Under the pieces are notes generated by a model. That model was not told the origin of the DNA. It did no database searches and was given only the letters and a program-made list of their open reading frames with translations. Below are positions 42,970 through 63,888 of a stretch of 64,000 nucleotides of DNA, in pieces (position 1 is the stretch's first letter; each line of letters begins with the position of its first letter). This stretch comes from a bacterium (GTDB taxonomy: Bacteria; Actinomycetota; Coriobacteriia; Coriobacteriales; CADBOM01): assembly GCA_024698685.1 (NCBI GenBank), contig JAILQZ010000002.1:4366-68365 (forward strand), given 5' to 3'. The position numbers and the translations under genes are program-made.

Positions 42970-42977
42970 GGGCGCCA

Positions 42978-45870: not shown

Positions 45871-45882
45871 AGGGAAGTTGAA

Positions 45883-46638: not shown

Positions 46639-47390
46639 CGCGCGTTCTCCTATACGGAGGGACGACCGAAGGGCACGAGCTCGCCTGCGCGCTTGCGGAG
46701 GCTGGCCTCGAGGTCTGCGTCAGCGTGGCCACCGACGAGGGCGCCAAGGTGCTCCCGAAGGACCTCGCAGGGCTCACCGTGCGCATCGGCGCGCAGGATG
46801 CGGAGGAAAAGCACGAGTTGATGACCAGCGGCTTCGACGTCGTCGTCGACGCCACGCACCCCTATGCGACATCCGTTAGCAAGTCGGTGCGGGAGGCGGC
46901 GCAGCGGGCGGGTCTTCCGCTGCTGCGGATCATCAGGCCCAAAGGCGACACCGAGGGCTGCATCCTCGCCAGCTCGATTGCCGACGCGGTGGGCAAGATC
47001 CCGCCAGAGGGCAACGTGCTCGCCACCACCGGGAGCAAGGAAATCGGCCTCTACGCTGCGATGGAAGGCGTAGGAGAGCGCCTGTTCGCGCGCGTGCTCA
47101 ACGTTGAATCGTCCGTCGAGGCGTGCCGTGCGGCGGGCATCCCCGACGAGCACATCATCGCCAAGCGCGGACCCTTCTCGGTAGAGGAGAACATGGAATG
47201 CATCGACGAGCATCGCATCGAGGTGCTCGTGACCAAGGACGGCGGCAACGCCGGAGGATACCCCGAGAAGCTCGAGGCAGCGCGTGCCCGCGGCGTGACG
47301 ATGATCGTCATCGAGCGCCCCGAAGAGGAGACGGGCATCGAGAAGGACGAGGCGCTGCGGATGATACTCGAAGGAAGGTTTTCGCTATGA
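46635..47390 (+). CDS. cbiJ: Cobalt-precorrin-6A reductase CbiJ/CobK.
   Basis: 251 aa, beginning MTRVLLYGGTTEGHELA. The start overlaps the upstream stop as ATGA. Confidence 0.85.
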   Translation: MTRVLLYGGTTEGHELACALAEAGLEVCVSVATDEGAKVLPKDLAGLTVRIGAQDAEEKHELMTSGFDVVVDATHPYATSVSKSVREAAQRAGLPLLRIIRPKGDTEGCILASSIADAVGKIPPEGNVLATTGSKEIGLYAAMEGVGERLFARVLNVESSVEACRAAGIPDEHIIAKRGPFSVEENMECIDEHRIEVLVTKDGGNAGGYPEKLEAARARGVTMIVIERPEEETGIEKDEALRMILEGRFSL

Positions 47391-48652: not shown

Positions 48653-50049
48653 GCGGCAAGGCCAAAGCCGCCGCTATCCCGCGCATCATGATCTCTGCGG
48701 GCGCCAGTGGATCCGGCAAGACGACGATAACCTCCGGGCTGCTGCGATGCCTTTCGAACAAGGGCATCGCCACCATCGCCTACAAGTGCGGCCCCGACTA
48801 CATCGACCCGATGTTCCACAAGACTGTCCTCGGCATTCCCTGCCGCAATCTCGACCTCTTCTTCTCCGACGAGAGCGAGGTGCGCACGCTGATGGCCGAA
48901 AGCTCCAGCGGCTACAGCGTGGCCGTGGTCGAGGGCGTCATGGGATTCTACGACGGCCTCGGCGGATCGGATACGCAGGCTTCGGCCTACCATGTGGCGC
49001 GCACGACCGGCACCCCTGTCATCCTGGTAGTCGACGGGCGCGGAGTCTCGTTGACGCTGGCCGCGACGATCAAGGGGCTCATCGGCTTCCGCGAGGGCAG
49101 CAACATCGCCGCCGTCATCATCAACCGCTGCTCCAAAGCGCTCTTCGAGCACCTCAGGCCGATCATCGAGAGCGAGTGCGGCGTCAAGGCGCTCGGATAC
49201 GTCGAGAACAGTCCCGAGATGGCTCTGGAAAGCCGGCATCTCGGCCTCGTCACCGCAGGCGAGGTCGATGACCTGCAGGCGCGCATCGACGCGATAGCGA
49301 GCCGCCTCGAGGTCTCGATCGACTTCGACGCGCTGCTCGAGATAGCCCGCGGCGCAGAGCCGATCGATTTCGAACCCTCTTCCGTGGAGCCGCTGGCAAC
49401 GGCAGCGGAGGCGCCCTGCATCGCGGTGGCGAGAGACGATGCCTTCTGCTTCTACTACGAGGAGAGCCTCGAGCATCTGCGCAGGCTGGGGGCCAGAATC
49501 GTCCCCTTCTCCCCCATCGCGGACAACGAGCTTCCATCCGAGGCCGACGCGCTCTACATCGGAGGCGGCTACCCCGAGCTGCACGCCGAGGAGCTCTCCG
49601 GCAACTCGACGATGCTCGAGTCGATCAGGCGCGCGCACGGAGAGGGCATGCCGATCTTCGCCGAATGCGGGGGCTTCATGTATCTCAAAGAACGCATGGC
49701 CGACCTCGACGGACGCGAGTTCGAGATGGTCGGGGTCCTCAGCGGCGGGGCGCACTACACAGGCAAGCTCACGCGCTTCGGCTACGTCGACCTCGAGGCG
49801 AAAGCCGATGGCCTCGGCATCGCCAAGGGCAGCCACATGAGGGCGCACGAGTTCCACTATTACGACAGCGACGACAACGGCAGCGCGATGCATGCCTCCA
49901 AGCAGCACTCCAAGCGCAGCTGGGACTGCTGCATAGCAGAGAAGAGGCTGTTCGCGGGCTTTCCGCACCTCTACCTGCCGGCGTGCGACGAGTTCGCGCG
50001 CGGGTTCGTGAGCACCGCGATCGAATACAGGGCGGAGCGGCTCGGATAG
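48649..50049 (+). CDS. cbiA: Cobyrinate a,c-diamide synthase CbiA.
   Basis: 466 aa with GASGSGKTTITSGL and a C-terminal glutamine amidotransferase (FAECGGFMYL). Confidence 0.9.
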   Translation: MSGKAKAAAIPRIMISAGASGSGKTTITSGLLRCLSNKGIATIAYKCGPDYIDPMFHKTVLGIPCRNLDLFFSDESEVRTLMAESSSGYSVAVVEGVMGFYDGLGGSDTQASAYHVARTTGTPVILVVDGRGVSLTLAATIKGLIGFREGSNIAAVIINRCSKALFEHLRPIIESECGVKALGYVENSPEMALESRHLGLVTAGEVDDLQARIDAIASRLEVSIDFDALLEIARGAEPIDFEPSSVEPLATAAEAPCIAVARDDAFCFYYEESLEHLRRLGARIVPFSPIADNELPSEADALYIGGGYPELHAEELSGNSTMLESIRRAHGEGMPIFAECGGFMYLKERMADLDGREFEMVGVLSGGAHYTGKLTRFGYVDLEAKADGLGIAKGSHMRAHEFHYYDSDDNGSAMHASKQHSKRSWDCCIAEKRLFAGFPHLYLPACDEFARGFVSTAIEYRAERLG

Positions 50050-50089
50050 GCCGAGCGCTGACGCAAGCACCAAAAGGGCAAGGAGACGA

Positions 50090-51616
50090 ATGGGCAAGGC
50101 ACTGATGATACAGGGGACCACCTCCAACGCGGGCAAGAGCCTGACCGTTGCGGCGATCTGCCGCATCCTGGCGCAGGACGGCTACAGCGTCGCCCCCTTC
50201 AAGAGCCAGAACATGGCGCTCAACAGCTTCATCACGCACGAGGGTCTCGAGATGGGCCGCGCACAGGTGATGCAGGCAGAGGCGGCGGGCATCGAGCCGC
50301 TCGTCGCGATGAACCCTATCCTGCTCAAGCCGACCGGCGACACGGGCAGCCAGATCATCGTCAACGGCGAGGTCACGGGGAACATGAGCGCAACCGACTA
50401 CTTCGACTTCAGGCACACGCTGCGCCCGAAGGTCATGGAGGCGTTCGATTCGCTGGCCAGCACGCACGACTTCGTCATAATCGAGGGCGCGGGCTCGCCG
50501 GCGGAGATCAACCTCAAGAAGGACGACATCGTCAACATGGGCATGGCGAAGATGGCCAAGGCTCCCGTGCTGATCGTCGGCGACATCGACCGTGGCGGCG
50601 TCTTCGCGAGCCTTTACGGCACGGTAGCGCTGCTCGACGATGACGAACGTACGCTCGTGAAGGGAACGATCATCAACAAGTTCCGCGGCGACAAGACGCT
50701 GCTCGACCCCGGCCTCGTCATGCTCGAGGACCTCACCGGCGTTCCGTGCCTCGGCGTCATTCCCTACATGCACCTTGACATCGACGACGAGGACTCGCTA
50801 TCCGACCGCATCGCCGGCGGCCGAGTCGGAGATGGTCCGATCGACATCGCGGTAGTGCGCCTCTCGCACCTGTCGAACTTCACCGACACCAACCCGCTGT
50901 CGCGCTATCGCCAGCTCTCGGTGCGCTATGTCGACAGACCCGAGGACCTGCGCAGCCCCGACCTCATCATCCTGCCAGGCACCAAGAACACGATGGACGA
51001 CATGGATTGGCTAGTCTCGCGCGGGCTGGACGTGGCGATTCGCCGCAGGGCAGCGGAAGGCGCGCTCATCCTCGGGATCTGCGGAGGCTACCAGTTGCTT
51101 GGCGAACGCCTCGACGACCCCGAGGGCGTCGAGCACGGCGGCTCGATGGCGGGCCTCGGCCTCCTCCCGATGCGCACGGTCTTCACCTCCGACAAGCGCC
51201 GCACGCGCGTCGACGCGATCACCGGCGAATTCATCGGCGAATTCGCGCAGCTTTCGGGCAAGACTCTCACCGGATACGAGATCCACATGGGCGCAACCGT
51301 GCCGGTCAACGGCGAGTGGGCGGAAGGCGCCAGGCCCTTCGCGACGTTGACCGACGACAACGGCAACACCATGGTTGACGGTTGCGTCTGCGGCAACGTC
51401 ATCGGCAGCTACTGCCATGGCATGTTCGAGGACGGCAGCTTCGGGCAGGCGCTCGTCGGGATGCTGTGCGAGCGCAAGGGCGTCGCAGCGAGCGACTTCC
51501 CCATCGAGACCTTCAGGCGTTACAAGGACAGGCAGTACGACGAGCTCGCCGCCACTGTGCGCGAGAGCATAGACATGGAGCTTCTGATGAGGATCATCGA
51601 GGAGGGTGTGCGATGA
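50090..51616 (+). CDS. cobQ: Cobyric acid synthase CobQ/CbiP.
   Basis: 508 aa, beginning MIQGTTSNAGKSLTVAAICR, with GICGGYQLLG. Confidence 0.95.
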   Translation: MGKALMIQGTTSNAGKSLTVAAICRILAQDGYSVAPFKSQNMALNSFITHEGLEMGRAQVMQAEAAGIEPLVAMNPILLKPTGDTGSQIIVNGEVTGNMSATDYFDFRHTLRPKVMEAFDSLASTHDFVIIEGAGSPAEINLKKDDIVNMGMAKMAKAPVLIVGDIDRGGVFASLYGTVALLDDDERTLVKGTIINKFRGDKTLLDPGLVMLEDLTGVPCLGVIPYMHLDIDDEDSLSDRIAGGRVGDGPIDIAVVRLSHLSNFTDTNPLSRYRQLSVRYVDRPEDLRSPDLIILPGTKNTMDDMDWLVSRGLDVAIRRRAAEGALILGICGGYQLLGERLDDPEGVEHGGSMAGLGLLPMRTVFTSDKRRTRVDAITGEFIGEFAQLSGKTLTGYEIHMGATVPVNGEWAEGARPFATLTDDNGNTMVDGCVCGNVIGSYCHGMFEDGSFGQALVGMLCERKGVAASDFPIETFRRYKDRQYDELAATVRESIDMELLMRIIEEGVR

Positions 51617-52143
51617 GCGAGGATGCCAAGAGGGGCCTCGTCCACCTCTACTCCGGGGACGGCAAGGGCAAGACGACCGCAGCTATGGGCTTGGCGGCCA
51701 GGGCTGCAGGCAGCGGAAAGCACGTGGTGATCGCGGAGTTCCTCAAGGGCGACCGCTCCTGCGAGCTCAACACGCTGCGACTCAGCGACAACGTCGAGGT
51801 CATGAAGGCCGACTGCCCCGTCAAGTTCTCCTTCCGGATGACCGACGAGGAGAGGGAGCGCACCAGGCTCGCGAACGACGAGCTGCTCGCGCGTCTCGCG
51901 CAGTGCGATTGCGACCTCATCGTGGCCGACGAGGCCATCAACGCCTACAGGCTCGACCTCATCGACCGCCAGGCGCTCAAGGACTTCGTCGTCAACAAGC
52001 CCGAGGGCACGGAGCTCGTGCTCACCGGCCGCCAGCCAGACGAGTTCTTCATCGAGCACGCGGACTACGCAACGGAGATGGTGTGCCGCAAGCATCCATA
52101 CCGAGAGCAGGGAATCAAGGCAAGAAAGGGTATCGAATTCTGA
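51613..52143 (+). CDS. cobO: Cob(I)yrinic acid a,c-diamide adenosyltransferase (CobO/BtuR type).
   Basis: Starts MSEDAKRGLVHLYSGDGKGKTTAAMG (ATGA overlap with cobQ). Confidence 0.85.
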   Translation: MSEDAKRGLVHLYSGDGKGKTTAAMGLAARAAGSGKHVVIAEFLKGDRSCELNTLRLSDNVEVMKADCPVKFSFRMTDEERERTRLANDELLARLAQCDCDLIVADEAINAYRLDLIDRQALKDFVVNKPEGTELVLTGRQPDEFFIEHADYATEMVCRKHPYREQGIKARKGIEF

Positions 52144-52787
52144 TGGCAACTATCGAACAGGTGCTTCCGAACGAGATCGAGAAGCGCAGCATGCAAATCA
52201 TCGGCGAGGAGCTCGCCGAGATGGGAATCGAGCTCGACCCGCGCAACGAGGCGGTCATAAAGCGGGTGATCCACACCTCCGCCGACTTCGACTACGCCAC
52301 CAGCCTCGCCTTCTCCGAGGGCGCGGTGGACGCCGGCGTGGCGGCACTCAAGCGCGGAGCCACCATCGTCACCGACACCAAGATGGCATGGTCGGGAATC
52401 AGCAAGCCCGCGTTGGCCAAGCTAGGCGCCGACGCGCAGTGCTACATGAGCGACCCAGACATCGCGCAGGCCGCCAAGGACAATGGCACGACCCGCGCTG
52501 TGGCTTGCATGAACAAGGCCGCAAGGCTCGAAGGCGACGTCATCATCGCTGTCGGCAACGCGCCAACCGCGCTCATCGAGCTGGACAAGCTGATCAAAGA
52601 TGGTAGAATCTCCCCCGCTCTGGTTATCGGCGTGCCAGTCGGCTTCGTCAACGTGGTCGCCAGCAAGGAGATCATCATGGAATCCGGCGTGCCCTACATC
52701 GTCGCGAAGGGGCGCAAGGGCGGAAGCAACATCGCAGCAGCGATCTGCAACGCCATGTTGTATGAGGCAACGAGGCGCGAGCTCTAG
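52143..52787 (+). CDS. cbiC: Cobalt-precorrin-8 methylmutase CbiC.
   Basis: Starts MATIEQVLPNEIEKRSMQII, with the motif VGNAPTAL. Confidence 0.9.
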   Translation: MATIEQVLPNEIEKRSMQIIGEELAEMGIELDPRNEAVIKRVIHTSADFDYATSLAFSEGAVDAGVAALKRGATIVTDTKMAWSGISKPALAKLGADAQCYMSDPDIAQAAKDNGTTRAVACMNKAARLEGDVIIAVGNAPTALIELDKLIKDGRISPALVIGVPVGFVNVVASKEIIMESGVPYIVAKGRKGGSNIAAAICNAMLYEATRREL

Positions 52788-52805
52788 GCATTGGAAGGAA
52801 GCGTC

Positions 52806-53837
52806 GTGAAGGACACTAAAGCAAGGCGCAAGACGAGATGGACGATGTCGTTCATCATACTCGGAGTGCTCCTGATAGTCTTCATGATCCTCAACATCGT
52901 CAAGGGCAGCGTCGACGTGCCCTTCTCCGACGTCATCGCGATCTTCTCAGGCGGTGACGCCAACGAGGTATCGCGGCAGATCGTGCTCTCGATGCGCATG
53001 CCGCGCGCTCTGGCCGCGGTGCTGCTCGGCGGCGCGCTAGCCCTCTCGGGCTACCTGCTGCAGACCTTCTTCCACAACCCGCTGGCCGGCCCGTTCGTCC
53101 TGGGAATCTCCTCGGGCGCAAAGCTGATCGTCGCCATCACGATGGTCTTCTTCCTCGGGTTCGGCATCAAGATGGGCTCGATCGCGATGATCGTCGCGGC
53201 GTTCATCGGCTCGATGATCGCGATGGGCTTCGTGCTGCTGATATCCAAGCGCGTCAACAACATGTCGATGCTGATCGTCGCCGGCATCATGGTCGGCTAC
53301 ATCTGCTCGGCCATCACCGAGTTCATCGTCACATTCGCTGACGACTCCGATATCGTCAACCTGCACAACTGGTCGCTGGGAAGCTTCTCGGGCACCACAT
53401 GGGACAACGTCGGCGTGATGGCGGTCATCGTCATCATCACCACGATCTTCGTCTTCCTGCTCTCCAAGCCGATCTCGGCCTACCAGCTCAGCGAGACATA
53501 CGCGGCCAACATGGGCGTCAACGTCAAGGCCTTCCGCGCGATCCTCGTCCTTCTCTCCAGCCTGCTCTCCGCCTGCGTAACCGCATTCGCCGGCCCGATC
53601 TCGTTTGTCGGAATCGCGGTGCCCCAGATAGTCAAGAACCTGTTCAAATCGTCGAAGCCGCTGCTGATGATACCCGCCTGCTTCGTGGGAGGAGGGGTCT
53701 TCTGCCTCCTCTGCGACCTGCTGGCGCGCATCGCTTTCGCACCCACCGAGCTATCGATCTCGACGGTAACCGCGGTCTTCGGCGCGCCGGTCGTCATCGC
53801 GGTCATGCTCCGCAGGCGCGCTGGGAAGATGGACTGA
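52806..53837 (+). CDS. FecCD/BtuC-family ABC permease (corrinoid/siderophore/heme type).
   Basis: The ORF runs 52791..53837 and begins with TTG. I prefer the GTG at 52806, which follows GGAAGGAAG. It carries the motif RMPRALAAVLLGGALALSGYLLQTFFHNPLAGPFVLGISSGA. Confidence 0.85.
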   Translation: MKDTKARRKTRWTMSFIILGVLLIVFMILNIVKGSVDVPFSDVIAIFSGGDANEVSRQIVLSMRMPRALAAVLLGGALALSGYLLQTFFHNPLAGPFVLGISSGAKLIVAITMVFFLGFGIKMGSIAMIVAAFIGSMIAMGFVLLISKRVNNMSMLIVAGIMVGYICSAITEFIVTFADDSDIVNLHNWSLGSFSGTTWDNVGVMAVIVIITTIFVFLLSKPISAYQLSETYAANMGVNVKAFRAILVLLSSLLSACVTAFAGPISFVGIAVPQIVKNLFKSSKPLLMIPACFVGGGVFCLLCDLLARIAFAPTELSISTVTAVFGAPVVIAVMLRRRAGKMD

Positions 53838-53847
53838 GGTGGTGGCG

Positions 53848-55005
53848 ATGGCTCAGGGCGCAGCTCCTCACGACAAGTACTACTTCACCGCCGAGAAGAT
53901 GACCGTCGGCTACGATGGCGTGCCCTTGATCGAGAACATCGACATCGAGATCGCAAAGGGCGAGATCCTCACGCTCATCGGGCCCAACGGCGCAGGCAAG
54001 TCGACGATTCTCAAGACGATTACCAAGCAGCTCTCGCTGCTCGGCGGCGCTGTCTACCTCAACGGCGAGGACATCCACAAGGTCAATCAGAAGGAGCTCG
54101 CGAAGCAGATCGCGGTCATGCTCACCGAGCGCATCCGCCCCGAGCTCATGACCTGCGAGGACGTCGTCGGAACGGGTCGCTATCCCTACACGGGCAGTCT
54201 GGGCCTGCTCACGGAGGAGGATGAGGCGGTCGTCAAGCGGACGATGGAGCTCGTGCGCATCTCCGAACTGGCCGATCGCGACTTCATGGCGATCAGCGAT
54301 GGCCAGCGCCAGCGCGTCATGCTCGCCAGGGCGATCTGCCAGGAGCCCGAGCTCATGATCCTCGACGAGCCCACCTCCTTCCTCGACATACGCTACAAGC
54401 TCGAGTTTCTCAACATCCTGCAGGAGATGTCGCGCAAGCAGGGAATGACCGTCGTGATGTCGCTGCACGAGCTCGACCTCGCCGAGCGTATCAGCGACAA
54501 GATCCTCTGCGTGCGTGGCAAGACCATCGACCGCTTCGGCACCCCCGACGAGGTCTTCGAGCCCGGATACATCGACAGCCTCTACGAGCTCACCGTCGGC
54601 TCCTACGATGCGTCATCGGGTCGCGTTGAGCTGCCGCGCATCGAGGGCGAGCCGGAGGTATTCGTCATCTCCGGCAACGGCACGGGCACCAGCTTCTTCA
54701 GGCAGCTGCAGCGTCTCTCCGTCCCCTTCGCCACCGGCATCCTCTCGCAAAACGACATCGATTATCCGGTCGCCTCGGTGCTGGCCGCCAACGTGATATC
54801 GGTTCCGGCATTCACCTTCTTCGGCGAGGGCGAGCTCGCGCAGGCGCGCGCGCAGATCGATTCCTGCGGCTGCGTCGTCATAACGCTAGGCAGCGAGGCT
54901 ACGATCCCGCATGAGCTGAACTCGCTGCTCGAATACGCAGCCGGCATTGGCAAGCAGGTCCTCTCCCCCGGCGAATACCTGGCGCAAAGGGCCGCCCAAG
55001 CCTGA
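53848..55005 (+). CDS. FecE/BtuD-family ABC ATPase with a ~125-aa C-terminal extra domain.
   Basis: The ORF runs 53839..55005 and begins with GTG. I prefer the ATG at 53848, which follows GAGGTG. It has Walker A GPNGAGKST and the signature ISDGQRQRVMLARA. Residues after about 262 (EPEVFVISGNGTGTSFF...) lie beyond a normal ABC cassette. Confidence 0.85.
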   Translation: MAQGAAPHDKYYFTAEKMTVGYDGVPLIENIDIEIAKGEILTLIGPNGAGKSTILKTITKQLSLLGGAVYLNGEDIHKVNQKELAKQIAVMLTERIRPELMTCEDVVGTGRYPYTGSLGLLTEEDEAVVKRTMELVRISELADRDFMAISDGQRQRVMLARAICQEPELMILDEPTSFLDIRYKLEFLNILQEMSRKQGMTVVMSLHELDLAERISDKILCVRGKTIDRFGTPDEVFEPGYIDSLYELTVGSYDASSGRVELPRIEGEPEVFVISGNGTGTSFFRQLQRLSVPFATGILSQNDIDYPVASVLAANVISVPAFTFFGEGELAQARAQIDSCGCVVITLGSEATIPHELNSLLEYAAGIGKQVLSPGEYLAQRAAQA

Positions 55006-55161: not shown

Positions 55162-56049
55162 ATGAGCTATGCTCAGAGCCCGAAGGTCAAGTATCCCGAC
55201 GATTACCTGGTTTCACCCGATGCTGAATGGGAGCTCGTCGCCCATACGGACGATTGCATCGTGCTCGAGGGCATAAACTTCGTCGGAGACGAGCTATGGC
55301 TCCTCGACACCGGCCGCGGTCGCATCCTCAAGGTCGAGGGCGACAAGATCGTCGTCGCGCTCCAGAGCGAGAAGGGAATGCCCAACGGAATGAGGCCGCT
55401 CGATGACCACACGATCCTTGTGGCCGACCGCATCCTGGGGCTATGCACCTACGACACCATCACCGGCGAATACGTGGTTCGCTGCACGGGTCTGCCAGAC
55501 GCCCCGTTCATCCACATCGACGACCTCGTGCTAGATGGGCGCGGCGGCGCATACATCACCGACCCCGGCGGCAGCAACTACATCAACCCGTTCGGCCGCG
55601 TATTCTACGTCCGCTACGGCGACGGCAGCTGGGAGTGCGAGGAGTTCCTCAAAGGCATCGCGTTCCCTAACGGAATCACGCTCTCGCCCGACGGGATCTT
55701 CGTCTACATCGCCGAATTCAGTTCCAACACGATCATCGCCGCTCCCTCGAAGCTCTACGACGACGACAAGGAGGCACCCTATGCATTCGCGCGCCTCGTC
55801 GGAGGCATCGGCCCCGACGGGCTCATCACGGACACGCAGGGCAACATCTACGCGGCGCATCTGCACGCAGGCGAGGTCGTGGCCTTCGACAAGAAGGGCT
55901 GGCCGATCGCGGAGATCCGACTCCCCGAATGCGCTGGCGTCGTGAACACCAACCTCTGCATCCACGATGGATACCTCTACACGTGCGAGCTCGAGAAGGG
56001 CGACGTGTGGCGCATCCCGATCAAGGCGGAGCAGCACCAGCTCTCGTAG
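55162..56049 (+). CDS. SMP-30/gluconolactonase/LRE-family beta-propeller protein.
   Basis: 295 aa with the motifs PNGMRPLDD, DDLVLDGRGGAYITD, FPNGITLSPDG and GPDGLITDTQGN. Confidence 0.7.
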   Translation: MSYAQSPKVKYPDDYLVSPDAEWELVAHTDDCIVLEGINFVGDELWLLDTGRGRILKVEGDKIVVALQSEKGMPNGMRPLDDHTILVADRILGLCTYDTITGEYVVRCTGLPDAPFIHIDDLVLDGRGGAYITDPGGSNYINPFGRVFYVRYGDGSWECEEFLKGIAFPNGITLSPDGIFVYIAEFSSNTIIAAPSKLYDDDKEAPYAFARLVGGIGPDGLITDTQGNIYAAHLHAGEVVAFDKKGWPIAEIRLPECAGVVNTNLCIHDGYLYTCELEKGDVWRIPIKAEQHQLS

Positions 56050-56264: not shown

Positions 56265-56480
56265 ATGGCTAGATGGAACGCGCCCACGGGCGCGGGCTGT
56301 TCGAAAGGGCAGCAAGGGGAATGCGGGTGAGAGTCCCGCGCTATACCAGTAACCGTAAGGCTTTGCATCAAGATCCTCTAAGCGATGCAGACGAAGTCGG
56401 AATGCCTTTCCATCGAAAACTTTGTTGCCCTGGATGGCTTTGCGCTCGAATGAATCCTCCAGGAAAAGTTGGCTCCAATG
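56265..56480 (+). promoter_or_regulatory. Cobalamin (B12) riboswitch. Boundaries are approximate.
   Basis: The core is AAGGGGAATGCGGGTGAGAGTCCCGCGCTATACCAGTAACCGTAAGG (about 56313-56360). This compares with the consensus GGGAA..GGTG.A.ATCC...C.GT.CCCGCAACCGTAA. A B12-box-like GAAGTCGGAATGCC lies at 56393-56406. The element sits about 110-320 nt upstream of the cbiK-like gene. Confidence 0.75.
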
Positions 56481-56587
56481 ATGCAGGCGCGACCATGCCC
56501 GGCGCGTTTGCATTTAGGCTGAAGGGTGCGCCCTGAAGCCGGGCAGATTGTCAGCCGGGCAAAAAGAAAAGGAAACGGAGAAAGAAT

Positions 56588-57469
56588 ATGAAGAAGCTAC
56601 TTGTTGCAATCACTGTCGTGGCTGCCCTGTGCGCTGGAATGATCGCAGGTTGCTCCGGCAGCAAGGCCGAGCCGGATCCCACCAAGGAGATCCTGGTCGT
56701 GAGCTTCGGCACCAGCTTCGCCGATAACCGCGAGGAGACCATCGGCGCAGTCGAGAGCGCGATCCAGGAGGCGTTCCCGGAGTGGACCGTCGCTCGCGCG
56801 TTCACCGCTCAGATCATCATCGACAAGGTTGCCAAGGAGGAGGGCGTCGAGATCGATAACTTCGAGCAGGCACTCCAGAGGGCACATGACAACGGCGTCA
56901 CCACGCTCGTCATCCAGCCTACCCACCTGATGCATGGCCTCGAGTACACCGATGTCAAGAACACCCTCGCCCAGTATGAGGACCAGTTCGAGACGGTCGT
57001 CCTGGCAGAGCCGCTGCTCTCCAGCGATGAGGACTTCGAGGCAGTCGCGAAGGCCATCACCGACGCAACCAAGGACAGCGACAACGGCACCACCGCCCTC
57101 GTCTTCATGGGCCATGGCACCGAGGCCGACTCCAACGCAGTCTATGCTAAGATGCAGGGCGTCCTGACCGCTGATGGCTTCGCCAACTACTATGTCGGCA
57201 CCGTCGAGGCAACCCCGTCCCTCGATGACGTCATCGCCGCAATCGACGGTAAGGGCTACACCGATGTCGTCCTCACCCCGCTCATGGTTGTCGCTGGCGA
57301 TCATGCCAACAACGACATGGCTGCTCAGGATGATCCCGAGTCCTGGTACAGCATCCTCACCGCCAAGGGCTATAACGTAACTGCCAATCTCACCGGCCTT
57401 GGCTCGCTCAAGCCGATCCAGGATCTCTACGTTCAGCACACCCAGGCTGCCATCGATAGCATTCAGTAA
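56588..57469 (+). CDS. cbiK: CbiK-type sirohydrochlorin cobaltochelatase homologue with a lipoprotein signal peptide (exported).
   Basis: 293 aa with the lipobox AGMIAGCSG. It is CbiK-like throughout (ILVVSFGTS, FMGHGTE, PLMVVAGDHANNDM). Both catalytic His positions are present. Confidence 0.85.
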   Translation: MKKLLVAITVVAALCAGMIAGCSGSKAEPDPTKEILVVSFGTSFADNREETIGAVESAIQEAFPEWTVARAFTAQIIIDKVAKEEGVEIDNFEQALQRAHDNGVTTLVIQPTHLMHGLEYTDVKNTLAQYEDQFETVVLAEPLLSSDEDFEAVAKAITDATKDSDNGTTALVFMGHGTEADSNAVYAKMQGVLTADGFANYYVGTVEATPSLDDVIAAIDGKGYTDVVLTPLMVVAGDHANNDMAAQDDPESWYSILTAKGYNVTANLTGLGSLKPIQDLYVQHTQAAIDSIQ

Positions 57470-57510: not shown

Positions 57511-57542
57511 GAGCCCCAGATGATTAGCTTCGTCTGGGGCTC
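57511..57542 (+). other. Intercistronic 10-bp-stem hairpin.
   Basis: gagccccaga (57511-57520) pairs with tctggggctc (57533-57542). There is no U-tract, so it is more likely a processing or stability element than a full terminator. Confidence 0.4.
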
Positions 57543-57566: not shown

Positions 57567-58769
57567 TTGAAGAAGTTTCTGAGCATGGCGATGTCGCTGG
57601 CGCTCGCGCTCGCGATGTGCTTCGGCATCCCTGCGGCGATCGCCGATGACGGAGTTGCCGGCAGCGACGAGTATGGCGGTCGCGAGGCCGTCGCCAACGA
57701 TGGCATGATCCCCGTCTCGGGCGACCAGCTGCCCGATGGCACCTACAACATCGACGTCATCTCCGATTCCGGGATGTTCAACATCGTCAACTGCGTCCTC
57801 AAGGTGAAGGACGGCAACATGACCGCCACCGTGACGCTCTCCGGCGATGGCTACGACTTCCTCTACATGGGAACCGGCGAGGAGGCCGTCAAGGCCGGAA
57901 CCGCCGCATATTCGGGCTATAAGGAGAACTCGGACGGCAAGTACGAGTACACCGTCGAGGTCTCGGCCCTCAACGAGGGCATTCCCTGCGCGGCGTTCAG
58001 CCACCGCAAGCAGCAGTGGTACGACCACACAATCGTCTTCTCCCCCGCCAAGATCGACAAGGACATCCTGCCTGCAGGAACCTACTGCGCCGAGAGCACC
58101 GATCCATTCAACGGGGCCGGCTACATCGACCTCGAGGACGGTACCTACACGATGGATGTCGAGTTCGCGGGTGGAAGCGGCAAGGCATCGATCAACTCCC
58201 CGGCGAAGCTGACCGTCAAGGACAAGTGCGCCTCCGCCGAGCTCGAGTGGAGCAGCGATGGCTACGACTACCTGGTCGTCAACGGCTACAAGTACCCGAA
58301 GACCAATACCGAGGGCAACTCGAAGTTCGAGATCCCGGTGCTCTGCTACGACAAGCCGATGGACATCATCGGCGACACCACGAAGATGAGCACGCCGCAT
58401 GAGATCGACTACACCCTCACCTTCAAGAAGGACACCGCGAAGGCGGCTGGATCGCTTGGCGGCTCGACCCTGTGGATCATCATCGGCATCGTCGTCATCG
58501 CGGTCATCGTCGTCGCAGCGCTTCTCGTGAGAAAGAGCCGCAAGAAGAAGGCGAGCGACCTGCCGATGACTGCTGCTGCAGCTGAGGAAGCGGTAGAGGA
58601 AGCTGCCGCAGACGCAGCCGATGCCGTCGAAGCTGTCGAAGAGAAGGTCGAGGAGATCGCCGAGACTGCCGAAAACGCAGCTGCCGAGGCCGAAGAGGCC
58701 GCCGAAGAGGTTGCCGAGATCGCAACCGATGTCGCTGACGATGCGGCCGAGGCTATCGAGGAGAACTAG
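57567..58769 (+). CDS. Surface protein with a signal peptide, two tandem ~120-aa beta-rich domains, a single C-terminal TM anchor and an Ala/Glu-rich acidic cytoplasmic tail.
   Basis: 400 aa with a TTG start 6 nt after GAAAGGGAGG. The internal repeat is LPDGTYNIDV...LKVKDGNMTATVTLSGDGYDFLYMG against LEDGTYTMDV...LTVKDKCASAELEWSSDGYDYLVVNG. The TM helix is LWIIIGIVVIAVIVVAALLV, followed by RKSRKKK. Confidence 0.8.
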   Translation: MKKFLSMAMSLALALAMCFGIPAAIADDGVAGSDEYGGREAVANDGMIPVSGDQLPDGTYNIDVISDSGMFNIVNCVLKVKDGNMTATVTLSGDGYDFLYMGTGEEAVKAGTAAYSGYKENSDGKYEYTVEVSALNEGIPCAAFSHRKQQWYDHTIVFSPAKIDKDILPAGTYCAESTDPFNGAGYIDLEDGTYTMDVEFAGGSGKASINSPAKLTVKDKCASAELEWSSDGYDYLVVNGYKYPKTNTEGNSKFEIPVLCYDKPMDIIGDTTKMSTPHEIDYTLTFKKDTAKAAGSLGGSTLWIIIGIVVIAVIVVAALLVRKSRKKKASDLPMTAAAAEEAVEEAAADAADAVEAVEEKVEEIAETAENAAAEAEEAAEEVAEIATDVADDAAEAIEEN

Positions 58770-58772
58770 GCG

Positions 58773-59951
58773 ATGGCAAAGGTTATCACCAAGGCTTTGA
58801 GGCGCGTTGCCGTTGCGATGGCGTGCATCGCGCTCTCCGCCTTCGCGCTGGCTGGCTGCTCTGGGGACAAGAGCATCTCCCCCGAGAACGTCAGCTCCGA
58901 GTTGACGTACGACCACAGCATGGAGCTCAAGTATGCGAAGCTGTTCTCAGTCGACTACTACAACGACGGCTACAAGCTGATCACGCTCGATGGCGAAGGC
59001 AGCTATCTCGTCGTTCCTGAAGGCGCGGCCATCCCAGGCGATCTCTCGCCTGAGATAGTCGTTTTGCAGCAGCCGCTCGACCAGATCTACCTCGTCGCCT
59101 CATCCGCCTTCGATATGTTCAAGGCGATCGACGGCATCGACACGATCCACCTCTCCGGCACCAAGGTCAGCTCCTGGCACATCAAAGAGGCCGTCGACGC
59201 GATGAACTCAGGGAAGATCCTCTACGCGGGCAAGTACAACATCCCCGACTACGAGCTGATCCTCTCCGAAGGTTGCGACCTCGCGATCGAGTCGACGATG
59301 ATCTACCACACCCCCGAGGTAAAGGAGGCGATCGAGGGCTACGGCATCCCGGTATTCGTCGACATGTCGAGTTACGAGGATGAGCCGCTCGGCCGCTCCG
59401 AGTGGGTCAAGGTCTACGGCGCGATGCTGAACAAGGAGGCCGAGGCCGAGGCCGCCTTCGATGCGCAGGAGGCCATGTTCGACGCGGTGGCCGATGAGGT
59501 CGCCGGCACCAGCACGGGCAAAACCATCGCCTTCTTCTACATCACGACGAGCGGCGAGGTCAACGTGCGCAAGTCGACCGACTACGTGCCGAAGATGATC
59601 GCCCTTGCCGGCGGAGAATACGCCTTCTCCGACCTCGAGGGCGACCCCGATAGCAGGACGAGCAGTGTCACGATGCAGATGGAGGACTTCTACAACACCG
59701 CGAAGGACTGCGACATCCTGATCTACAACTCGACGATCACCGGCGAGGTCGATTCCATCGATGAGCTGCTCGGCCTGAGCAGCTTCATGGGCGAATTCAC
59801 CGCGGTGTCGACGGGCAACGTCTGGTGCACCTCGCAGAACATGTATCAGGAGTCGATGCAGCTGGGTTACTTCGTCAAGGACCTCCACACAATCCTCGTC
59901 AACCCAGATGCCTCCGACAGCGAACTCGTCTATCTGCGAAAGCTGCACTAA
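58773..59951 (+). CDS. ABC substrate-binding lipoprotein, BtuF/HmuT/FecB class.
   Basis: 392 aa with the lipobox ALAGCSG. Its layout is that of a class III periplasmic-binding protein (...LQQPLDQIYLVASSAFDMFKAIDGIDTI...). Confidence 0.7.
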   Translation: MAKVITKALRRVAVAMACIALSAFALAGCSGDKSISPENVSSELTYDHSMELKYAKLFSVDYYNDGYKLITLDGEGSYLVVPEGAAIPGDLSPEIVVLQQPLDQIYLVASSAFDMFKAIDGIDTIHLSGTKVSSWHIKEAVDAMNSGKILYAGKYNIPDYELILSEGCDLAIESTMIYHTPEVKEAIEGYGIPVFVDMSSYEDEPLGRSEWVKVYGAMLNKEAEAEAAFDAQEAMFDAVADEVAGTSTGKTIAFFYITTSGEVNVRKSTDYVPKMIALAGGEYAFSDLEGDPDSRTSSVTMQMEDFYNTAKDCDILIYNSTITGEVDSIDELLGLSSFMGEFTAVSTGNVWCTSQNMYQESMQLGYFVKDLHTILVNPDASDSELVYLRKLH

Positions 59952-60106: not shown

Positions 60107-60454
60107 CTACTTGCAGGTGTAGGGGCCGGGAACGAACAGAACCTGGTTGGGCTTCTTGTCCATCTCGACGATGAGCTCGTCAATCGGTCCGAACCTCATG
60201 ACGCCAGCGAGGCAGTGATGGACGCAGGTGGGAAGCTTGCCCTTGGCCTGACGGTCTGCGCAGAGGTCGCACAGCGAAGTCGGGGTTGGGATCTTGTTCC
60301 AGTTCATCGTCTTCTCGTCGATCTCCCAGGGACCCTCGTCGAGGACCCTGATGCCCCACTTGCCAACGCCGAAGCCATGCTCCTGCTTGCAGGCGATCTC
60401 GCAGGATTGGCAACCAGAGCAGAACTCGTAATCGATCAAAAGGCCGTTTCTCAT
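60107..60454 (-). CDS. Mini-ferredoxin subunit (two predicted [4Fe-4S] clusters) of the molybdopterin oxidoreductase.
   Basis: 115 aa. CSGCQSCEIAC together with CDLC...CVHHC gives 8 Cys in two cluster motifs. It lies 12 nt downstream of the catalytic-subunit gene, with an AGGAGG RBS. Confidence 0.8.
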   Translation of the reverse strand: MRNGLLIDYEFCSGCQSCEIACKQEHGFGVGKWGIRVLDEGPWEIDEKTMNWNKIPTPTSLCDLCADRQAKGKLPTCVHHCLAGVMRFGPIDELIVEMDKKPNQVLFVPGPYTCK

Positions 60455-60466
60455 TGCTAATCCTCC

Positions 60467-62755
60467 TTATTTGTTCAGCTTCTCGATCTTGCAGATGATG
60501 CACTTGAAGGGTGCGCCGAAGCCGAGCTTGCCGACGAACTTGTGTGGCATGAGGTTGTTGATGTTGCAGCGCCAGACTCCGTAGAGATGCGGCTCTTCAG
60601 CATCCTCCTCAGGGAACCAGAAGCCATGCTGGGCGTTTGCAAGGCCCTGCCTGACGACCGGAGTGATCTTGGCCTTGAGCTCGCATCTGCCGAACTCGTT
60701 CTCGACGTTGACCCACTCGCCATCGATGATGCCGAGCTTCTCGGCGTCCTTCGGATTGATCTCGATCCACGGATCGGGATTGAGCTCGCGGAGCAGCGGG
60801 ATCTGCTTGCCCTCGGAGTGGAAGTACGCATAGACGCGCGAACCAGTGGTGAGGACGAACGGATACTCCTCCATCAGCTCCGGAGTGGAGATCGGCGAAC
60901 GCTGCGGCTCCTCGTAGTAGGGCAGCGGATCCTCGCCGAACTGGGCGAACATCGTCGAGTAGAGCTCAACGCGGCCGGTCGGGGTGTTGAATCCCCTCTT
61001 GCGATCGGGACGCAGGAGGCCGAGCTCGTACTTCTTGTAGGTGACCTTGCGCTGGCGGGTGACCTCTTCCTTGAGCTCGTTGTAGTCGATGTTGTTGCCG
61101 AAGCGGAACTCCTCCATGAAGTCGTAGAGGGTCGGGAACTTGGCGTAGTTGTCGGGCATGATCCTGCGGCCGATCTCGTACTGGATCTCGAGGTCGCCCT
61201 TGGTCTCGCCAACCTGGACGGCGTTGACCACGGAACCGGTCATGTTCGGCGATGCGCCGTAGTGGACCGCGACGCCCGACTCCCTCTCGGCGAAGGTGGC
61301 CAGCGGGAGGATGACGTCCGCGCAGCACTGGATCGTCGGGGTGATCCAGCAGTCGGCGGCGAAGACGAAGTCGAGCTTCTGCATGGCGTCATGCCAGCGC
61401 TTGGGCTGTGCGGCGCAGGTTCCTGCGAGCAGGTTGGTGGATGCGATGAAGCCAGCGTGGATCTCATAGGGCTCGCCGGTCTCCATGGCCTCGAGCGTGA
61501 GGTCCGCATGCGAGTTGAGGACGATCGCGACGTAGGCCGGATACTCCTTGAGGCCGATGATCTTGTTCTGAAGCTCAGGACCGAGCGAGCTCCAGCCGAA
61601 ACCGAGGTCGGCCAGGGAGTCGGTCACGTCTCCGAGGAGCTGTCCGCCGGGGACGTCGAGGTTGCCGGTGAGGGCCTCGAGGGCGAGGATGCAGTGTCCA
61701 GCCTGCGCGCCGTTGGCCTTCTGGTCGATCGCGAGACCCCAGAGGATCGCCGCGTTCTGGGCGTTGGCGTACATGCGGGTGGCGCCGTAGATGTCCTCGA
61801 CGTCGATGCCGCAGATCTCGGCGGCTCTCTCGGGAGGCATCGTCGCGACGCGCTCCGCGAGCTGCTCGAATCCGTAGCAGTACAGGCTGACGAACTCCTC
61901 ATCGTAGAGCCCCTCGCTGATGATGATGTTGAGCATCGCCATGCCGAGCGCGGCATCGGTGCCGGGACGCAGCGGCAGGTGATAGACGGCGCGGGTGGCC
62001 AGCCAGTTGGTGCGCGGGTCGACCGAGATGAGCTTGGAACCGCGCTTCATGCAGTCGATGACGGAGTGTCCGAAGAATCCGTCGCCGTTGGAGGGCAGAG
62101 GCTCCTTGCCCCAGGTCATCATGACCTCGGGGATCTTGTACATCGGGTCATCATAGCGCCCCGGCAGACCGCCTGCATAGTCCATCTCGGGATAGGTTGC
62201 GCCGGTGACGAACGTCGCAGCGGCAACGCGCGGGATGTAGCATGCATAGCCCGACTGGGTGTAGCAGGAGTTGGGGGTTCCGAGCATAGCCTGCCCGTAG
62301 GGGCCGCACATCGGGCCGCCCTCGCGGCCGGTTCCTCCGAAGACGACGATGGACTCCGGGCCGTACTTCTCCTTGATGTCCTTGATGTTGGTCTCGATGA
62401 TCTCGTAGGCCTCGTCCCAGGTGATGCGCTCCCACTTGTTCTTGCCGCGATCCTCGAAGGCGCGCTTCATCGGGTAGATGACGCGATCGGGATGGTAGGT
62501 CATGTCCGGGAGGGTCAGGCACCTGACGCACAGGCGGCCCTGGGTGATGGGCTGGTTCTCATCGCCCTCGACCTTCTCCAGGATTCCATCCTCGTTCACG
62601 TAGAATTTGATGCCGCATCCAACAGGATGGCATCCGGGTGCGGACCATGCGCAACCGCGGGTGACGGTATATCCGTCCTCCTCGAACTGCCACGGCTTGT
62701 CGAGGTCGTTGTTGAAGGCCTCGATTCCGCTATCGATTTTCGGTCGTGTTGCCAT
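60467..62755 (-). CDS. Molybdopterin (bis-MGD, DMSO-reductase superfamily) oxidoreductase catalytic subunit with no Tat signal.
   Basis: The ORF runs 60467..63085. I chose the start at MATRPKIDSGIEAFNNDL (ATG 62755), preceded by GGAAAGAAAGG; upstream of that point the ORF overlaps the torD-like gene. The N-terminal Cys cluster is GCAWSAPGCHPVGCG...CVRC. The body is MopB-like. Confidence 0.85.
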   Translation of the reverse strand: MATRPKIDSGIEAFNNDLDKPWQFEEDGYTVTRGCAWSAPGCHPVGCGIKFYVNEDGILEKVEGDENQPITQGRLCVRCLTLPDMTYHPDRVIYPMKRAFEDRGKNKWERITWDEAYEIIETNIKDIKEKYGPESIVVFGGTGREGGPMCGPYGQAMLGTPNSCYTQSGYACYIPRVAAATFVTGATYPEMDYAGGLPGRYDDPMYKIPEVMMTWGKEPLPSNGDGFFGHSVIDCMKRGSKLISVDPRTNWLATRAVYHLPLRPGTDAALGMAMLNIIISEGLYDEEFVSLYCYGFEQLAERVATMPPERAAEICGIDVEDIYGATRMYANAQNAAILWGLAIDQKANGAQAGHCILALEALTGNLDVPGGQLLGDVTDSLADLGFGWSSLGPELQNKIIGLKEYPAYVAIVLNSHADLTLEAMETGEPYEIHAGFIASTNLLAGTCAAQPKRWHDAMQKLDFVFAADCWITPTIQCCADVILPLATFAERESGVAVHYGASPNMTGSVVNAVQVGETKGDLEIQYEIGRRIMPDNYAKFPTLYDFMEEFRFGNNIDYNELKEEVTRQRKVTYKKYELGLLRPDRKRGFNTPTGRVELYSTMFAQFGEDPLPYYEEPQRSPISTPELMEEYPFVLTTGSRVYAYFHSEGKQIPLLRELNPDPWIEINPKDAEKLGIIDGEWVNVENEFGRCELKAKITPVVRQGLANAQHGFWFPEEDAEEPHLYGVWRCNINNLMPHKFVGKLGFGAPFKCIICKIEKLNK

Positions 62756-62829
62756 AGCGTACCTTTCTTTCCTTTTCCATTTATATGCAGGCGTCCACCT
62801 GTGCAAACCTGCAGGCAGAGCGCCCTTTT

Positions 62830-63525
62830 TCACAACTCCAAAGCCTGCGAGATGCGATCTCTGTCGGCCTCCAGGACTGCCAGCGCGAGCTTTGCGAGCG
62901 CGCTGTAGAAGGCGGTCTCGGAGAATTGCTGGACGAGCTGGGCGAACTGCGGAACCCATGTGAGCATGTGAGCGTCGATGAAGTCCCTTTGCTCTCGCAG
63001 ATATCCCTCGGCCTTGCTCGGCTCGCCCTCGCGCACGGCCAGGATCTCCTGCCCGGTGAGGAACTGCATGAACTCGAGCTCGCACGCGATGTGGTCGTCG
63101 AAATCGATGCGAGTTTTGGTTGGGCGGAATCCGTAGGCGTTGTAGGTGGCGGTAACATCGAGGGTGCTCTCTTGAAGCAGGCTGCCGTTGCGCGAGACGT
63201 AGACCGACTCGTAGGGAACCGCAGCCCTCGGCCCCTTGGGCCTGTTCTTGTCGTTGGGATCCGGAGGGTATCCGATGAACGATATGACGTAGTCGATCGC
63301 AAGATTGGACTTGGTGCGATCGTTCGCCTCATCGAGGTATGCCCTCATCTCGGCATAGGAAGCGTCGATAGCCTCGTTGCCCGATGGCTCGGGAACGGGG
63401 CTATCGATCAGATCCTTGAGAAGCGGCGCGTCGATTTCCAGCCTGAACAGGCGCGAGAGCATTGCATAGTCCTCGTACCTTTCCTGAAGAAGCTCCTCGG
63501 AAAGCATCCTGTCCAGGCTCGACAT
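62830..63525 (-). CDS. TorD/DmsD-family cofactor-insertion chaperone.
   Basis: 231 aa. The motifs YAMLSRLFRLEID and DHIACELEFMQFL are typical of TorD-like chaperones. Confidence 0.75.
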   Translation of the reverse strand: MSSLDRMLSEELLQERYEDYAMLSRLFRLEIDAPLLKDLIDSPVPEPSGNEAIDASYAEMRAYLDEANDRTKSNLAIDYVISFIGYPPDPNDKNRPKGPRAAVPYESVYVSRNGSLLQESTLDVTATYNAYGFRPTKTRIDFDDHIACELEFMQFLTGQEILAVREGEPSKAEGYLREQRDFIDAHMLTWVPQFAQLVQQFSETAFYSALAKLALAVLEADRDRISQALEL

Positions 63526-63540
63526 CGCTAGTATCGCCGC

Positions 63541-63888
63541 CTAGCCGTAGTGATAGGGCTGGGGAACGAAGAGAACCTGGTTGGGCTTGAGTTCAAGCTC
63601 CTTGGCCAGCTCCTCGACCGTTCCATACTGCATGACGCCAGCCAGGCAATGATGCACGCAGAAAGGCTGCTTGCCCTTGGACGTCCTGTCTTCGCAGAGG
63701 TCGCAAAGACGCGTGGGAACCGGGATCTTGTTCCAGTTGTACTTGCCGTCGGAGCACTTCCAGGGGCCGTCGTCGAGAAGGCGGATGCCCCACTGGCCTA
63801 CCGGGATGCCGTGCTCTTCCTTGCAGGCTACCTCACAAGATTGGCAACCGGTGCAGAACTCGTAATCGATCAGAAGTCCGTATGCCAT
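63541..63888 (-). CDS. Mini-ferredoxin subunit, paralogue of 60107..60454.
   Basis: 115 aa, beginning MAYGLLIDYEFCTGCQSCEVACKEEHG. It has the same length and Cys pattern as the first copy. Confidence 0.8.
   Translation of the reverse strand: MAYGLLIDYEFCTGCQSCEVACKEEHGIPVGQWGIRLLDDGPWKCSDGKYNWNKIPVPTRLCDLCEDRTSKGKQPFCVHHCLAGVMQYGTVEELAKELELKPNQVLFVPQPYHYG

Follow-up and report, generated by a model that had tools for sequence, protein, structure and literature searches.

Exported members of the CbiK family of cobaltochelatases are known from diderm bacteria, in particular CbiK(P) of Desulfovibrio vulgaris and IhtB, also named FetB, of Porphyromonas gingivalis, and both are reported to bind haem or porphyrin (PMC13065792, PMC12094164). 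In vitro, FetB can load a porphyrin analogue with Co and Mn but not with Fe and does not remove the metal of haemin, and CbiK(P) is described as a functional cobaltochelatase (PMC13065792). The iht operon that encodes FetB shows no response to iron or haem starvation (PMC12094164, a 2025 review of haem uptake). Extracellular cobamide capture in Gram-positive Firmicutes, for its part, "remains entirely uncharacterized" according to a September 2026 review (PMC13616437). Here we analysed a stretch of 64,000 nucleotides (nt), hereafter the window, from contig JAILQZ010000002.1 of assembly GCA_024698685.1, whose host is probably a monoderm member of Coriobacteriales. On its forward strand, at 56588-57469, the window carries a gene for an exported CbiK-like protein that stands in a widespread cassette under cobalamin control. 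We see about an even chance that this protein is a surface tetrapyrrole-handling accessory of a corrinoid uptake relay regulated by vitamin B12 (B12).

The open reading frame (ORF) of the CbiK-like protein is initiated by ATG, its N-terminus reads MKKLLVAITVVAALCAGMIAGCSGSKAEP, and a GGAG Shine-Dalgarno (SD) sequence lies 7 nt 5' of the start codon. Its GC content at the three codon positions (0.62/0.39/0.80) resembles that of the remaining genes of the window, which as a whole has 61% GC. At Cys22 the N-terminus satisfies a PROSITE-style lipobox rule of the PS51257 type: a positive N-region, here with K2 and K3, a hydrophobic core, here with an h-region hydropathy of 2.98, and the pattern [LVI..][AST..][GAS]C with the cysteine between residues 15 and 35. 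The 110 nearest full-length homologues all have an N-terminal extension, which carries a lipobox in 74 and resembles a signal peptide in 29, so that signal peptides are found in 103 of these 110 and also in 107 of 120 homologues of the FetB set. Judged by this rule and by its conservation in homologues, the CbiK-like protein is predicted to be a lipoprotein with a signal peptidase II site, and the SD sequence before M1 agrees with the claim of export made by the original prediction, which had been drawn from the letters of the window. That prediction had named a better downstream start as the observation that could remove the signal peptide. The sole in-frame alternative that spares strand 1 is M18; it has no SD sequence and the homologues keep their signal peptide, so this start was rejected and the signal peptide stands. 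A biosynthetic CbiK is expected in the cytoplasm, whereas the signal peptide with its lipobox Cys22, conserved in homologues, points out of it. On the side of gene models, the homologues P0002-P0007 (402-452 amino acids, aa) have two CbiK matches per polypeptide, a partial copy and then a complete one, which suggests that they are tandem CbiK-CbiK proteins with mis-called starts.

The Pfam CbiK family (PF06180) matches residues 33-289 with an E-value of 2.5e-79 and 266.7 bits against a threshold of 26.2, over profile positions 1-261 of 262. The AlphaFold2 model (predicted local distance difference test, pLDDT, 88.4) has a two-lobed alpha/beta chelatase fold, for which Foldseek gave target-normalised template modelling scores (TMt) of 0.93 with 1qgo (root-mean-square deviation 1.9 Å), 0.92 with 2xvz and 0.88 with 9b86. 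The E-values against solved structures were 2.8e-43 for 1qgo, 1.1e-42 for 9b86, which aligned from residue 1, and 4.2e-30 for 2xvx. The histidines of the motifs FMGHG (H176) and VAGDHA (H239) align with His145 and His207 of 1qgo and with H154 and H216 of 2xvx, and E207 is by alignment the equivalent of Glu175 (1qgo) and Glu184 (2xvx). The metal-handling histidines that had been read from these two motifs are thus kept on alignment to CbiK and CbiK(P), and E207 is to be added to them. We aligned 250 exported homologues, which come from two sets of different phylogeny, a close set of 114 from Clostridia and Coriobacteriales and the FetB set of 136. All 250 share H176, H239, H113, E119 and D243, while Glu stands at position 207 in 248 and Phe at position 40 in 249. 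The whole catalytic site is therefore under strict selection, which argues that the chemistry of the metal site matters; we think that the CbiK-like protein is not a passive scaffold and that its site serves cobalt coordination or insertion into cobalt-free corrinoid precursors.

By its predicted fold and its residues, the protein is a member of the CbiK family, and its place is beside CbiK(P) and FetB, the known exported paralogues. On the NCBIfam CbiK equivalog NF047852 it reaches 219.9 bits, under the cut-off of 400, and because it is also exported it is not regarded as an equivalog of the biosynthetic CbiK. The haem-ligand positions of CbiK(P), His96 and His103, align with T121 and A128 of the window protein. 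A histidine at the first of these positions occurs in 0 of 114 proteins of the close set and in 25 of 136 of the FetB set. By their titles, two reports of Lobo et al. are said to present CbiK(P) as a functional cobaltochelatase (2008) and its haem as bound through two added histidines (2017). Within the window, phmmer --max with Salmonella enterica CbiK and the ORF as queries against the six-frame translation found no other chelatase homologue, which bears out the statement that this is the only cobaltochelatase homologue of the window; a Pfam search of the cbi cluster and of the genes upstream of that cluster likewise gave no second chelatase. As the cbi cluster of the window is incomplete and the comparison is limited to the window, the only chelatase in the window does not mean the only one in the genome.

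Corrinoid control of the gene, as supposed by the original prediction, is indicated by a cobalamin riboswitch of the AdoCbl-II (adenosylcobalamin) type, RF01689, which sits on the gene's own strand, with 172 nt between it and the ATG, and is the sole Rfam match in the window (41.5 bits, gathering score 36.5, E 1.6e-6). In the minimum-free-energy fold of the leader behind it, a CUCC pairs with the GGAG of the SD sequence, a fold no better than those of shuffles (z -1.05), and the terminator scan gave no intrinsic terminator pattern on the + strand of the leader. The three genes downstream of the riboswitch all encode exported proteins, namely the CbiK-like protein, a NEAT-fold protein and a BtuF-like lipoprotein of the Peripla_BP_2 family whose N-terminus is MAKVITKALRRVAVAMACIALSAFALAGCSGD and which gave no useful match in a sequence search of the PDB. 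A hairpin sits in the 97-nt gap between the CbiK-like and NEAT genes (Table 1). It has no T-run behind it and was not called in the terminator scan, and it could adjust how strongly the first gene is expressed compared with those downstream.

The gene itself is real, and what the original prediction missed is that it stands first in a conserved and very widespread cassette, together with NEAT, BtuF-like and BtuCD-like genes. The protein database holds at least 8000 CbiK-like homologues, and at least 595 species have a relative (one genome per species scanned), mostly Clostridia; carriers include Lachnospiraceae, Ruminococcus, Oscillospiraceae, other Clostridia and Treponema, and also Coriobacteriales. 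We kept 80 related loci from the best-scoring species genomes, so that the counts are biased to close relatives, and several of these loci end at contig ends. A NEAT gene is adjacent in 79 of them, a BtuF-like gene is present in 71, a FecCD permease gene in 67 and a long ATPase gene in 64. The usual order is CbiK, NEAT, BtuF, BtuC, BtuD; in the window it is rearranged, btuC and btuD being placed upstream. Three loci encode CbiK and tandem NEAT as a single ORF and four encode tandem NEAT and the BtuF-like protein as a single ORF (Table 1). From these CbiK-NEAT and NEAT-BtuF fusions we argue that the three exported proteins act together, with NEAT in the middle. No CbiC homologue was found within ~7 kb in any of the 80 loci.

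The context of the window also points to corrinoid uptake. Besides the cobalamin riboswitch, the top NCBIfam match of the permease is the vitamin B12 permease BtuC NF003001 (208.6 bits, under the cut-off of 334), and residues 19-349 of the ATPase, almost its whole length, match the "corrinoid ABC transporter ATPase" PRK09536 (ABC, ATP-binding cassette) as second-best match with 194.9 bits, again below the cut-off. The C-terminal extension of this ATPase, of about 130 aa, has no Pfam domain, and the long form is kept in the cassette (330-370 aa aligned in most loci).

The neighbour of the CbiK-like protein has, as far as its model can tell, the NEAT beta-sandwich fold. A signal peptide is followed by one beta-sandwich at about aa 50-160 and another at about aa 190-290, and the C-terminal part consists of a transmembrane helix and an acidic tail. 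The Pfam NEAT family PF05031 reaches 20.2 bits on it, below the gathering score of 32.8, and many of its homologues have a precomputed PF05031 match; a sequence search of the PDB gave no useful match. The AlphaFold2 model, made with an alignment of 37 homologues, has a pLDDT of 77, and above 90 in domain 1, and its top Foldseek matches in the PDB are all NEAT proteins: IsdH N2N3 (2.4e-6), IsdB, IsdX1 (TMt 0.69-0.71) and Hbp2. In domain 1 the homologues have invariant S66/S68/M70/F71 and W151-Y152-D153, the latter at the start of the last strand and with no second Tyr. In domain 2, H278-E279-x-x-Y282 is invariant at the start of the last strand. Haem-binding NEAT domains carry YxxxY on their last strand, and by topology H278xxxY282 would correspond to the NEAT strand beta-8 site.

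Cobalamin control is a property of the related loci as well. Of the cassette loci tested, 10 of 10, 7 of 7 and 6 of 7 (23 of 24 in all) have the Rfam cobalamin riboswitch RF00174, at gathering score, immediately ahead of the cbiK-like gene, and an nhmmer profile built from RF00174 matches located a riboswitch in 69 of the 77 loci whose upstream DNA is long enough. Five of the eight profile-negative loci share a compact element with a GGAA-stem-loop, a GGTCACTGT stretch and a B12-box-like AGTCAGA; a further negative locus, L004, lies directly behind cbiC- and cbiF-like ORFs identified by eye. With a canonical or compact element in 69 plus 5 of 77 loci, the cobalamin control of the cassette is therefore close to universal. 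This compact element takes the place of the canonical riboswitch in 5 of the 7 fusion loci. On a short stretch it matches RF00174 with 22.6 bits and E 5e-4, 58 model positions being replaced by 7 nt, and on whole loci it is missed by Rfam 15. RNAalifold recovered its structure in part from a MAFFT alignment, in which strong covariation is seen in one variable hairpin. Scanned for as an exact pattern, the element turns up in at least 120 metagenomic copies (L088-L207), many of them labelled human gut. Three of the proteins encoded downstream of the metagenomic copies were checked; they are very large secreted proteins with DUF4430, and one of them also has SLH and weak Cobalamin_bind domains. 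The compact element may be an unrecognised riboswitch sub-class that controls surface B12 binders of Firmicutes.

The original prediction had stated that neither exported paralogue is known to be controlled by a B12 riboswitch. This is incorrect because the P. gingivalis locus ihtA-ihtB(FetB)-ihtCDE (L085) carries RF00174 at 3262-3501 (74.6 bits), some 200 nt ahead of its receptor gene, and because a cobalamin riboswitch that adjoins cbiKP has been published for O. alaskensis (PMC11124144). The P. gingivalis locus with the exact FetB variant encodes a TonB receptor, FetB, a Peripla_BP_2 protein, a FecCD permease and an ABC protein. In P. gingivalis, coenzyme B12 represses the "btuB" TonB receptor gene PGN_0704 via a riboswitch on a transcript that begins 430 nt before the start codon (Hirano et al. 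2012, PMC3422912). In the retrieved locus, 430 nt counted back from 3699 lead to 3269, against an Rfam start at 3262. The PGN_0704 locus is very probably the retrieved iht locus, a link that is made by this 430-nt geometry and not by the locus tag. The riboswitch at the iht locus receives no mention in the 2025 review (PMC12094164) or in the 2026 FetB paper (PMC13065792), and it suggests that Iht is a corrinoid system. The related Porphyromonas-type locus L083 has two tandem riboswitches (323-521 and 823-1071), and a Puteibacter "heme-binding protein" and a Desulfospira homologue have one cobalamin riboswitch each immediately upstream. Moreover, diderm homologues are encoded beside a BtuB-like TonB receptor, the place where Bacteroides has B12-binding surface lipoproteins such as BtuG.

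We propose that, when intracellular adenosylcobalamin is low, the riboswitch would permit synthesis of the CbiK-like, NEAT-fold and BtuF-like exported proteins, which together with the BtuC/BtuD-like permease and ATPase would form an Isd-like relay that carries corrinoids and not haem. The cleft of the chelatase fold would hold a corrin-type macrocycle, with its cobalt or its empty centre facing His176, Glu207 and His239, and the CbiK-like protein would hand its cargo to or from the NEAT protein and onward to BtuF and BtuCD. Since an acetate/propionate periphery is common to sirohydrochlorin and corrinoids, the cleft is a plausible corrin binder. The riboswitch, the export signal, the fold, the conserved site, the synteny of the cassette and the fusions are observed; the ligand, the order of the hand-off and any catalysis are what we infer. 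A role outside the cytoplasm on external tetrapyrroles or corrinoids, as suggested by the original prediction, is the best fit to the context of export, metal site and riboswitch. Several points weigh against a corrinoid relay. The corrinoid role of the Gram-positive clade is deduced from sequence, model and context, and in the literature FetB and CbiK(P) bind haem or porphyrin, not corrinoids. NEAT domains are classically haem binders, and type II ABC importers of the BtuCD kind also carry haem and siderophores. The invariance of the whole catalytic apparatus exceeds what a simple binding role needs. Finally, the btuC and btuD genes of the window lie upstream, outside the control of the riboswitch, and 3 of 77 loci have no riboswitch.

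The main rival to the corrinoid relay is extracellular cobalt insertion, which we consider unlikely. In that case the protein would be an extracytoplasmic cobaltochelatase that loads Co2+ into a tetrapyrrole scavenged without its cobalt (sirohydrochlorin/Factor II, hydrogenobyrinic acid or a similar compound), and the product would be imported via BtuFCD for the Cbi enzymes. The essentially invariant catalytic site of the 250 exported homologues speaks for it, and so do the lack of a cytoplasmic chelatase in the cbi cluster of the window and the cobalt chelatase activity of FetB in vitro (PMC13065792). P. gingivalis, moreover, is unable to make precorrin-2 (PMC6461909), FetB is reported as its best chelatase homologue (PMC13065792), and "tetrapyrrole precursor salvagers" are known, mostly among host-associated Firmicutes (PMC6461909). 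However, no CbiC homologue lies within ~7 kb in 80 of 80 loci, cobalt-free corrin precursors are expected to be rare and unstable in the anoxic gut as cobalt is inserted early, and a cytoplasmic CbiK or CbiX may exist outside the window. Some cassette-bearing taxa are B12 auxotrophs, which also counts against extracellular insertion. A combination of the two ideas, in which gut monoderms have an Isd-like corrinoid relay with a competent extracellular class II chelatase that inserts or exchanges metal before import, appears doubtful to the same degree. If it were true, part of B12 biosynthesis or salvage would be extracytoplasmic, and the Iht/FetB system of P. gingivalis, like CbiK(P) of Desulfovibrio, would serve corrinoids.

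Three other explanations fit the evidence less well. Acquisition of haem or iron, with haem bound at the surface, its metal stripped or exchanged and the NEAT protein and importer carrying haem, is improbable to us even though FetB and CbiK(P) have published haem or porphyrin binding (PMC13065792, PMC12094164), the neighbour has the NEAT fold of haem receptors and the importer family transports haem too. A cobalamin riboswitch, canonical or compact, precedes 74 of 77 cassette loci, both CbiK(P) haem-ligand histidines are missing, FetB neither inserts iron nor dechelates haemin (PMC13065792), and the iht operon is unresponsive to iron or haem starvation (PMC12094164). By topology, NEAT domain 2 would also have HxxxY in place of the YxxxY of haem NEAT domains, a difference that argues in the same direction. 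A second possibility, very improbable, is an extracytoplasmic cobalt-binding protein that would capture Co2+ with His/Glu/His under B12 limitation for uptake. B12 riboswitches commonly control cobalt importers, and the ligand that CbiK(P) holds on the equivalent residues in 2xvz is, presumably, Co2+, going by the title of that PDB entry. The partner here is nevertheless a type II BtuCD/FecCD importer, for chelates and not for free ions, the residues of the tetrapyrrole cleft and the NEAT partner would be superfluous, and the cassette is also present where no cbi genes are seen nearby. Lastly, that the protein is an ordinary cytoplasmic biosynthetic CbiK whose start was mis-called and whose "signal peptide" is untranslated seems scarcely credible. 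In favour of it, the gene adjoins a cbi cluster that has no chelatase, but a good SD sequence precedes M1 and none precedes M18, the signal peptide is kept in homologues with 0 of the 110 nearest lacking an N-terminal extension, the score on the NCBI CbiK equivalog model is 219.9 against 400, and the two co-transcribed neighbours are also exported.

The features of the window and of the related loci are collected in Table 1. The anaerobic cbi cluster upstream of the CbiK-like gene encodes, by Pfam, CbiD, a tetrapyrrole methylase, CbiG, a second methylase, CbiJ, a CbiE/T-like methylase, CbiA, CbiP and CbiC. One of its three methylases is assigned to CbiH. The cluster has no chelatase, is one methyltransferase short of the full pathway and is accompanied by no early tetrapyrrole genes within the window; with E allowed up to 1, Rfam still found no riboswitch ahead of it. 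By eye, the ORF that separates CbiP from CbiC resembles a corrinoid adenosyltransferase. The 365-aa protein encoded directly ahead of cbiD was considered as a second chelatase and rejected: it has a zinc-ribbon-like CxxC...CxxC N-terminus and a coiled-coil-like stretch, it matches no Pfam family, and no riboswitch precedes its gene. The signal-less SMP-30-like gene is absent from 80 of 80 related loci. Further downstream, on the - strand at 60107-63888, lie an 872-aa ORF with cysteine-rich N-terminal motifs and two paralogous cysteine-rich 115-aa ORFs with a 231-aa ORF between them; by eye they resemble a molybdopterin oxidoreductase set with ferredoxin-like subunits and a chaperone.

Table 1. 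Positions of features in the window and, in the last three rows, in related loci (numbered within each locus)
Feature	Position	Strand	Details
365-aa protein directly ahead of cbiD	41872-42969		GC content at third codon positions 0.87; gene-like codon bias
Anaerobic cbi cluster	42870-52787		upstream of the CbiK-like gene
BtuC-like FecCD permease	52791..53837	+	Pfam FecCD, E 2.3e-82; end of cbi cluster
ABC ATPase	53839..55005	+	388 aa; Pfam ABC_tran
Signal-less SMP-30/gluconolactonase/LRE-like beta-propeller gene	55162-56049		between btuD and riboswitch
AdoCbl-II cobalamin riboswitch aptamer RF01689	56298..56415	+	cmscan, full model 1-81
Leader / presumed expression platform	56416..56587	+	CCUCC ~56456-56460; SD GGAG 56577-56580
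Predicted exported CbiK-fold lipoprotein gene	56588..57469	+	293 aa; signal peptide aa 1-22; Cys22 codon 56651-56653
Metal-site codons of the CbiK-like gene	H176 57113-57115; E207 57206-57208; H239 57302-57304	+	
Hairpin	57511..57542	+	perfect 10-bp GC-rich stem GAGCCCCAGA / TCTGGGGCTC, 12-nt loop; read from sequence
Tandem NEAT-fold surface protein (predicted)	57567..58769	+	400 aa; TTG start preceded by GGGAGG
BtuF-like substrate-binding lipoprotein (Peripla_BP_2)	58773..59951	+	Pfam PF01497, E 5.9e-25; lipobox LAGC
Compact element	L026 ~6036-6173; L037 ~6412-6555; L049 6564-6708; L055 ~6603-6750; L077 ~6738-6882		
CbiK plus tandem NEAT as single ORF	L049 6803-8566; L060 971-3211; L077 6836-8740		3 loci
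Tandem NEAT plus BtuF-like as single ORF	L026 7655-9664; L037 7921-9942; L055 7781-9658; L069 7770-9890		4 loci

A single CbiK-like gene is one of thousands, while the cassette makes two questions testable, the purpose of exported CbiK proteins and the capture of corrinoids by monoderms. A literature search for a CbiK-plus-NEAT system or a Gram-positive corrinoid capture system found no description of the cassette, which is a concrete candidate for Gram-positive cobamide capture, occurs in hundreds of species and offers three exported components that lend themselves to expression and testing. CbiK(P) and IhtB/FetB, exported chelatases that have long been puzzling, are recast as members of the B12 regulon, and B12 control may explain the indifference of the iht operon to iron and haem. 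There is also a practical side, given that exported CbiK homologues are annotated "sirohydrochlorin cobaltochelatase" and can inflate genome-based predictions of B12 production; chelatase annotations in genomes without the corrin pathway were noted by Shelton et al. (PMC6461909).

Compared with the known systems, the window protein is closest in sequence and fold to the S. enterica CbiK (1qgo/2xwp; E 2.8e-43, TMt 0.93, 38% identity), from which it differs in being exported, whereas the Salmonella enzyme is signal-less and cytoplasmic and acts on sirohydrochlorin within the cbi operon. With CbiK(P) of D. vulgaris (2xvx/2xvy/2xvz) it shares export, the fold (TMt 0.92) and the Co-binding His/Glu/His, at 31% identity in Foldseek and a phmmer E-value of 4e-30. 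Unlike the window lipoprotein, CbiK(P) is soluble and resides in the periplasm of a diderm; it has two haem histidines and no NEAT partner. IhtB/FetB of P. gingivalis (9b86) is likewise an exported CbiK-fold lipoprotein, with an alignable signal peptide and an intact metal site, and its locus has BtuF-like, FecCD permease and ABC ATPase genes and an upstream cobalamin riboswitch. It differs, at about 33% identity, by its location on the outer-membrane surface of a diderm and by its partner, a TonB-dependent receptor and not NEAT, and it is read in the literature as a haem/iron or Mn-porphyrin system (PMC12094164, PMC13065792). Against both CbiK(P) and FetB, the window protein stands out as a putative membrane lipoprotein of a monoderm that lacks the haem histidines and has a near-constant NEAT partner.

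Other systems are alike in context or architecture. BtuG, BtuH and BtuJ of Bacteroides are surface lipoproteins under B12-riboswitch control that work with a Btu transporter in an extracellular relay (PMC13616437, PMC8941943). The likeness is one of context only: they have no kinship in sequence or fold, they belong to diderms and are built around BtuB, and B12 binding has been shown for them. The CobN-like BtuS/HmuS of Bacteroidota are another case of a chelatase family in tetrapyrrole transport loci, but they are class I, with an unrelated fold and another location; Hmu-like operons with a cobalamin riboswitch have been noted (PMC10100974), and BtuS1/BtuS2 are required for the use of haem iron in B. 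fragilis (PMC6460266). The Isd haem relay of Firmicutes has the same architecture as the cassette, with NEAT surface proteins, a class III binding lipoprotein (IsdE) and a type II importer (IsdF). What sets the cassette apart from Isd is its cobalamin riboswitch, the added chelatase-fold lipoprotein, a NEAT protein that scores below the Pfam threshold and an invariant HxxxY apparently in place of YxxxY.

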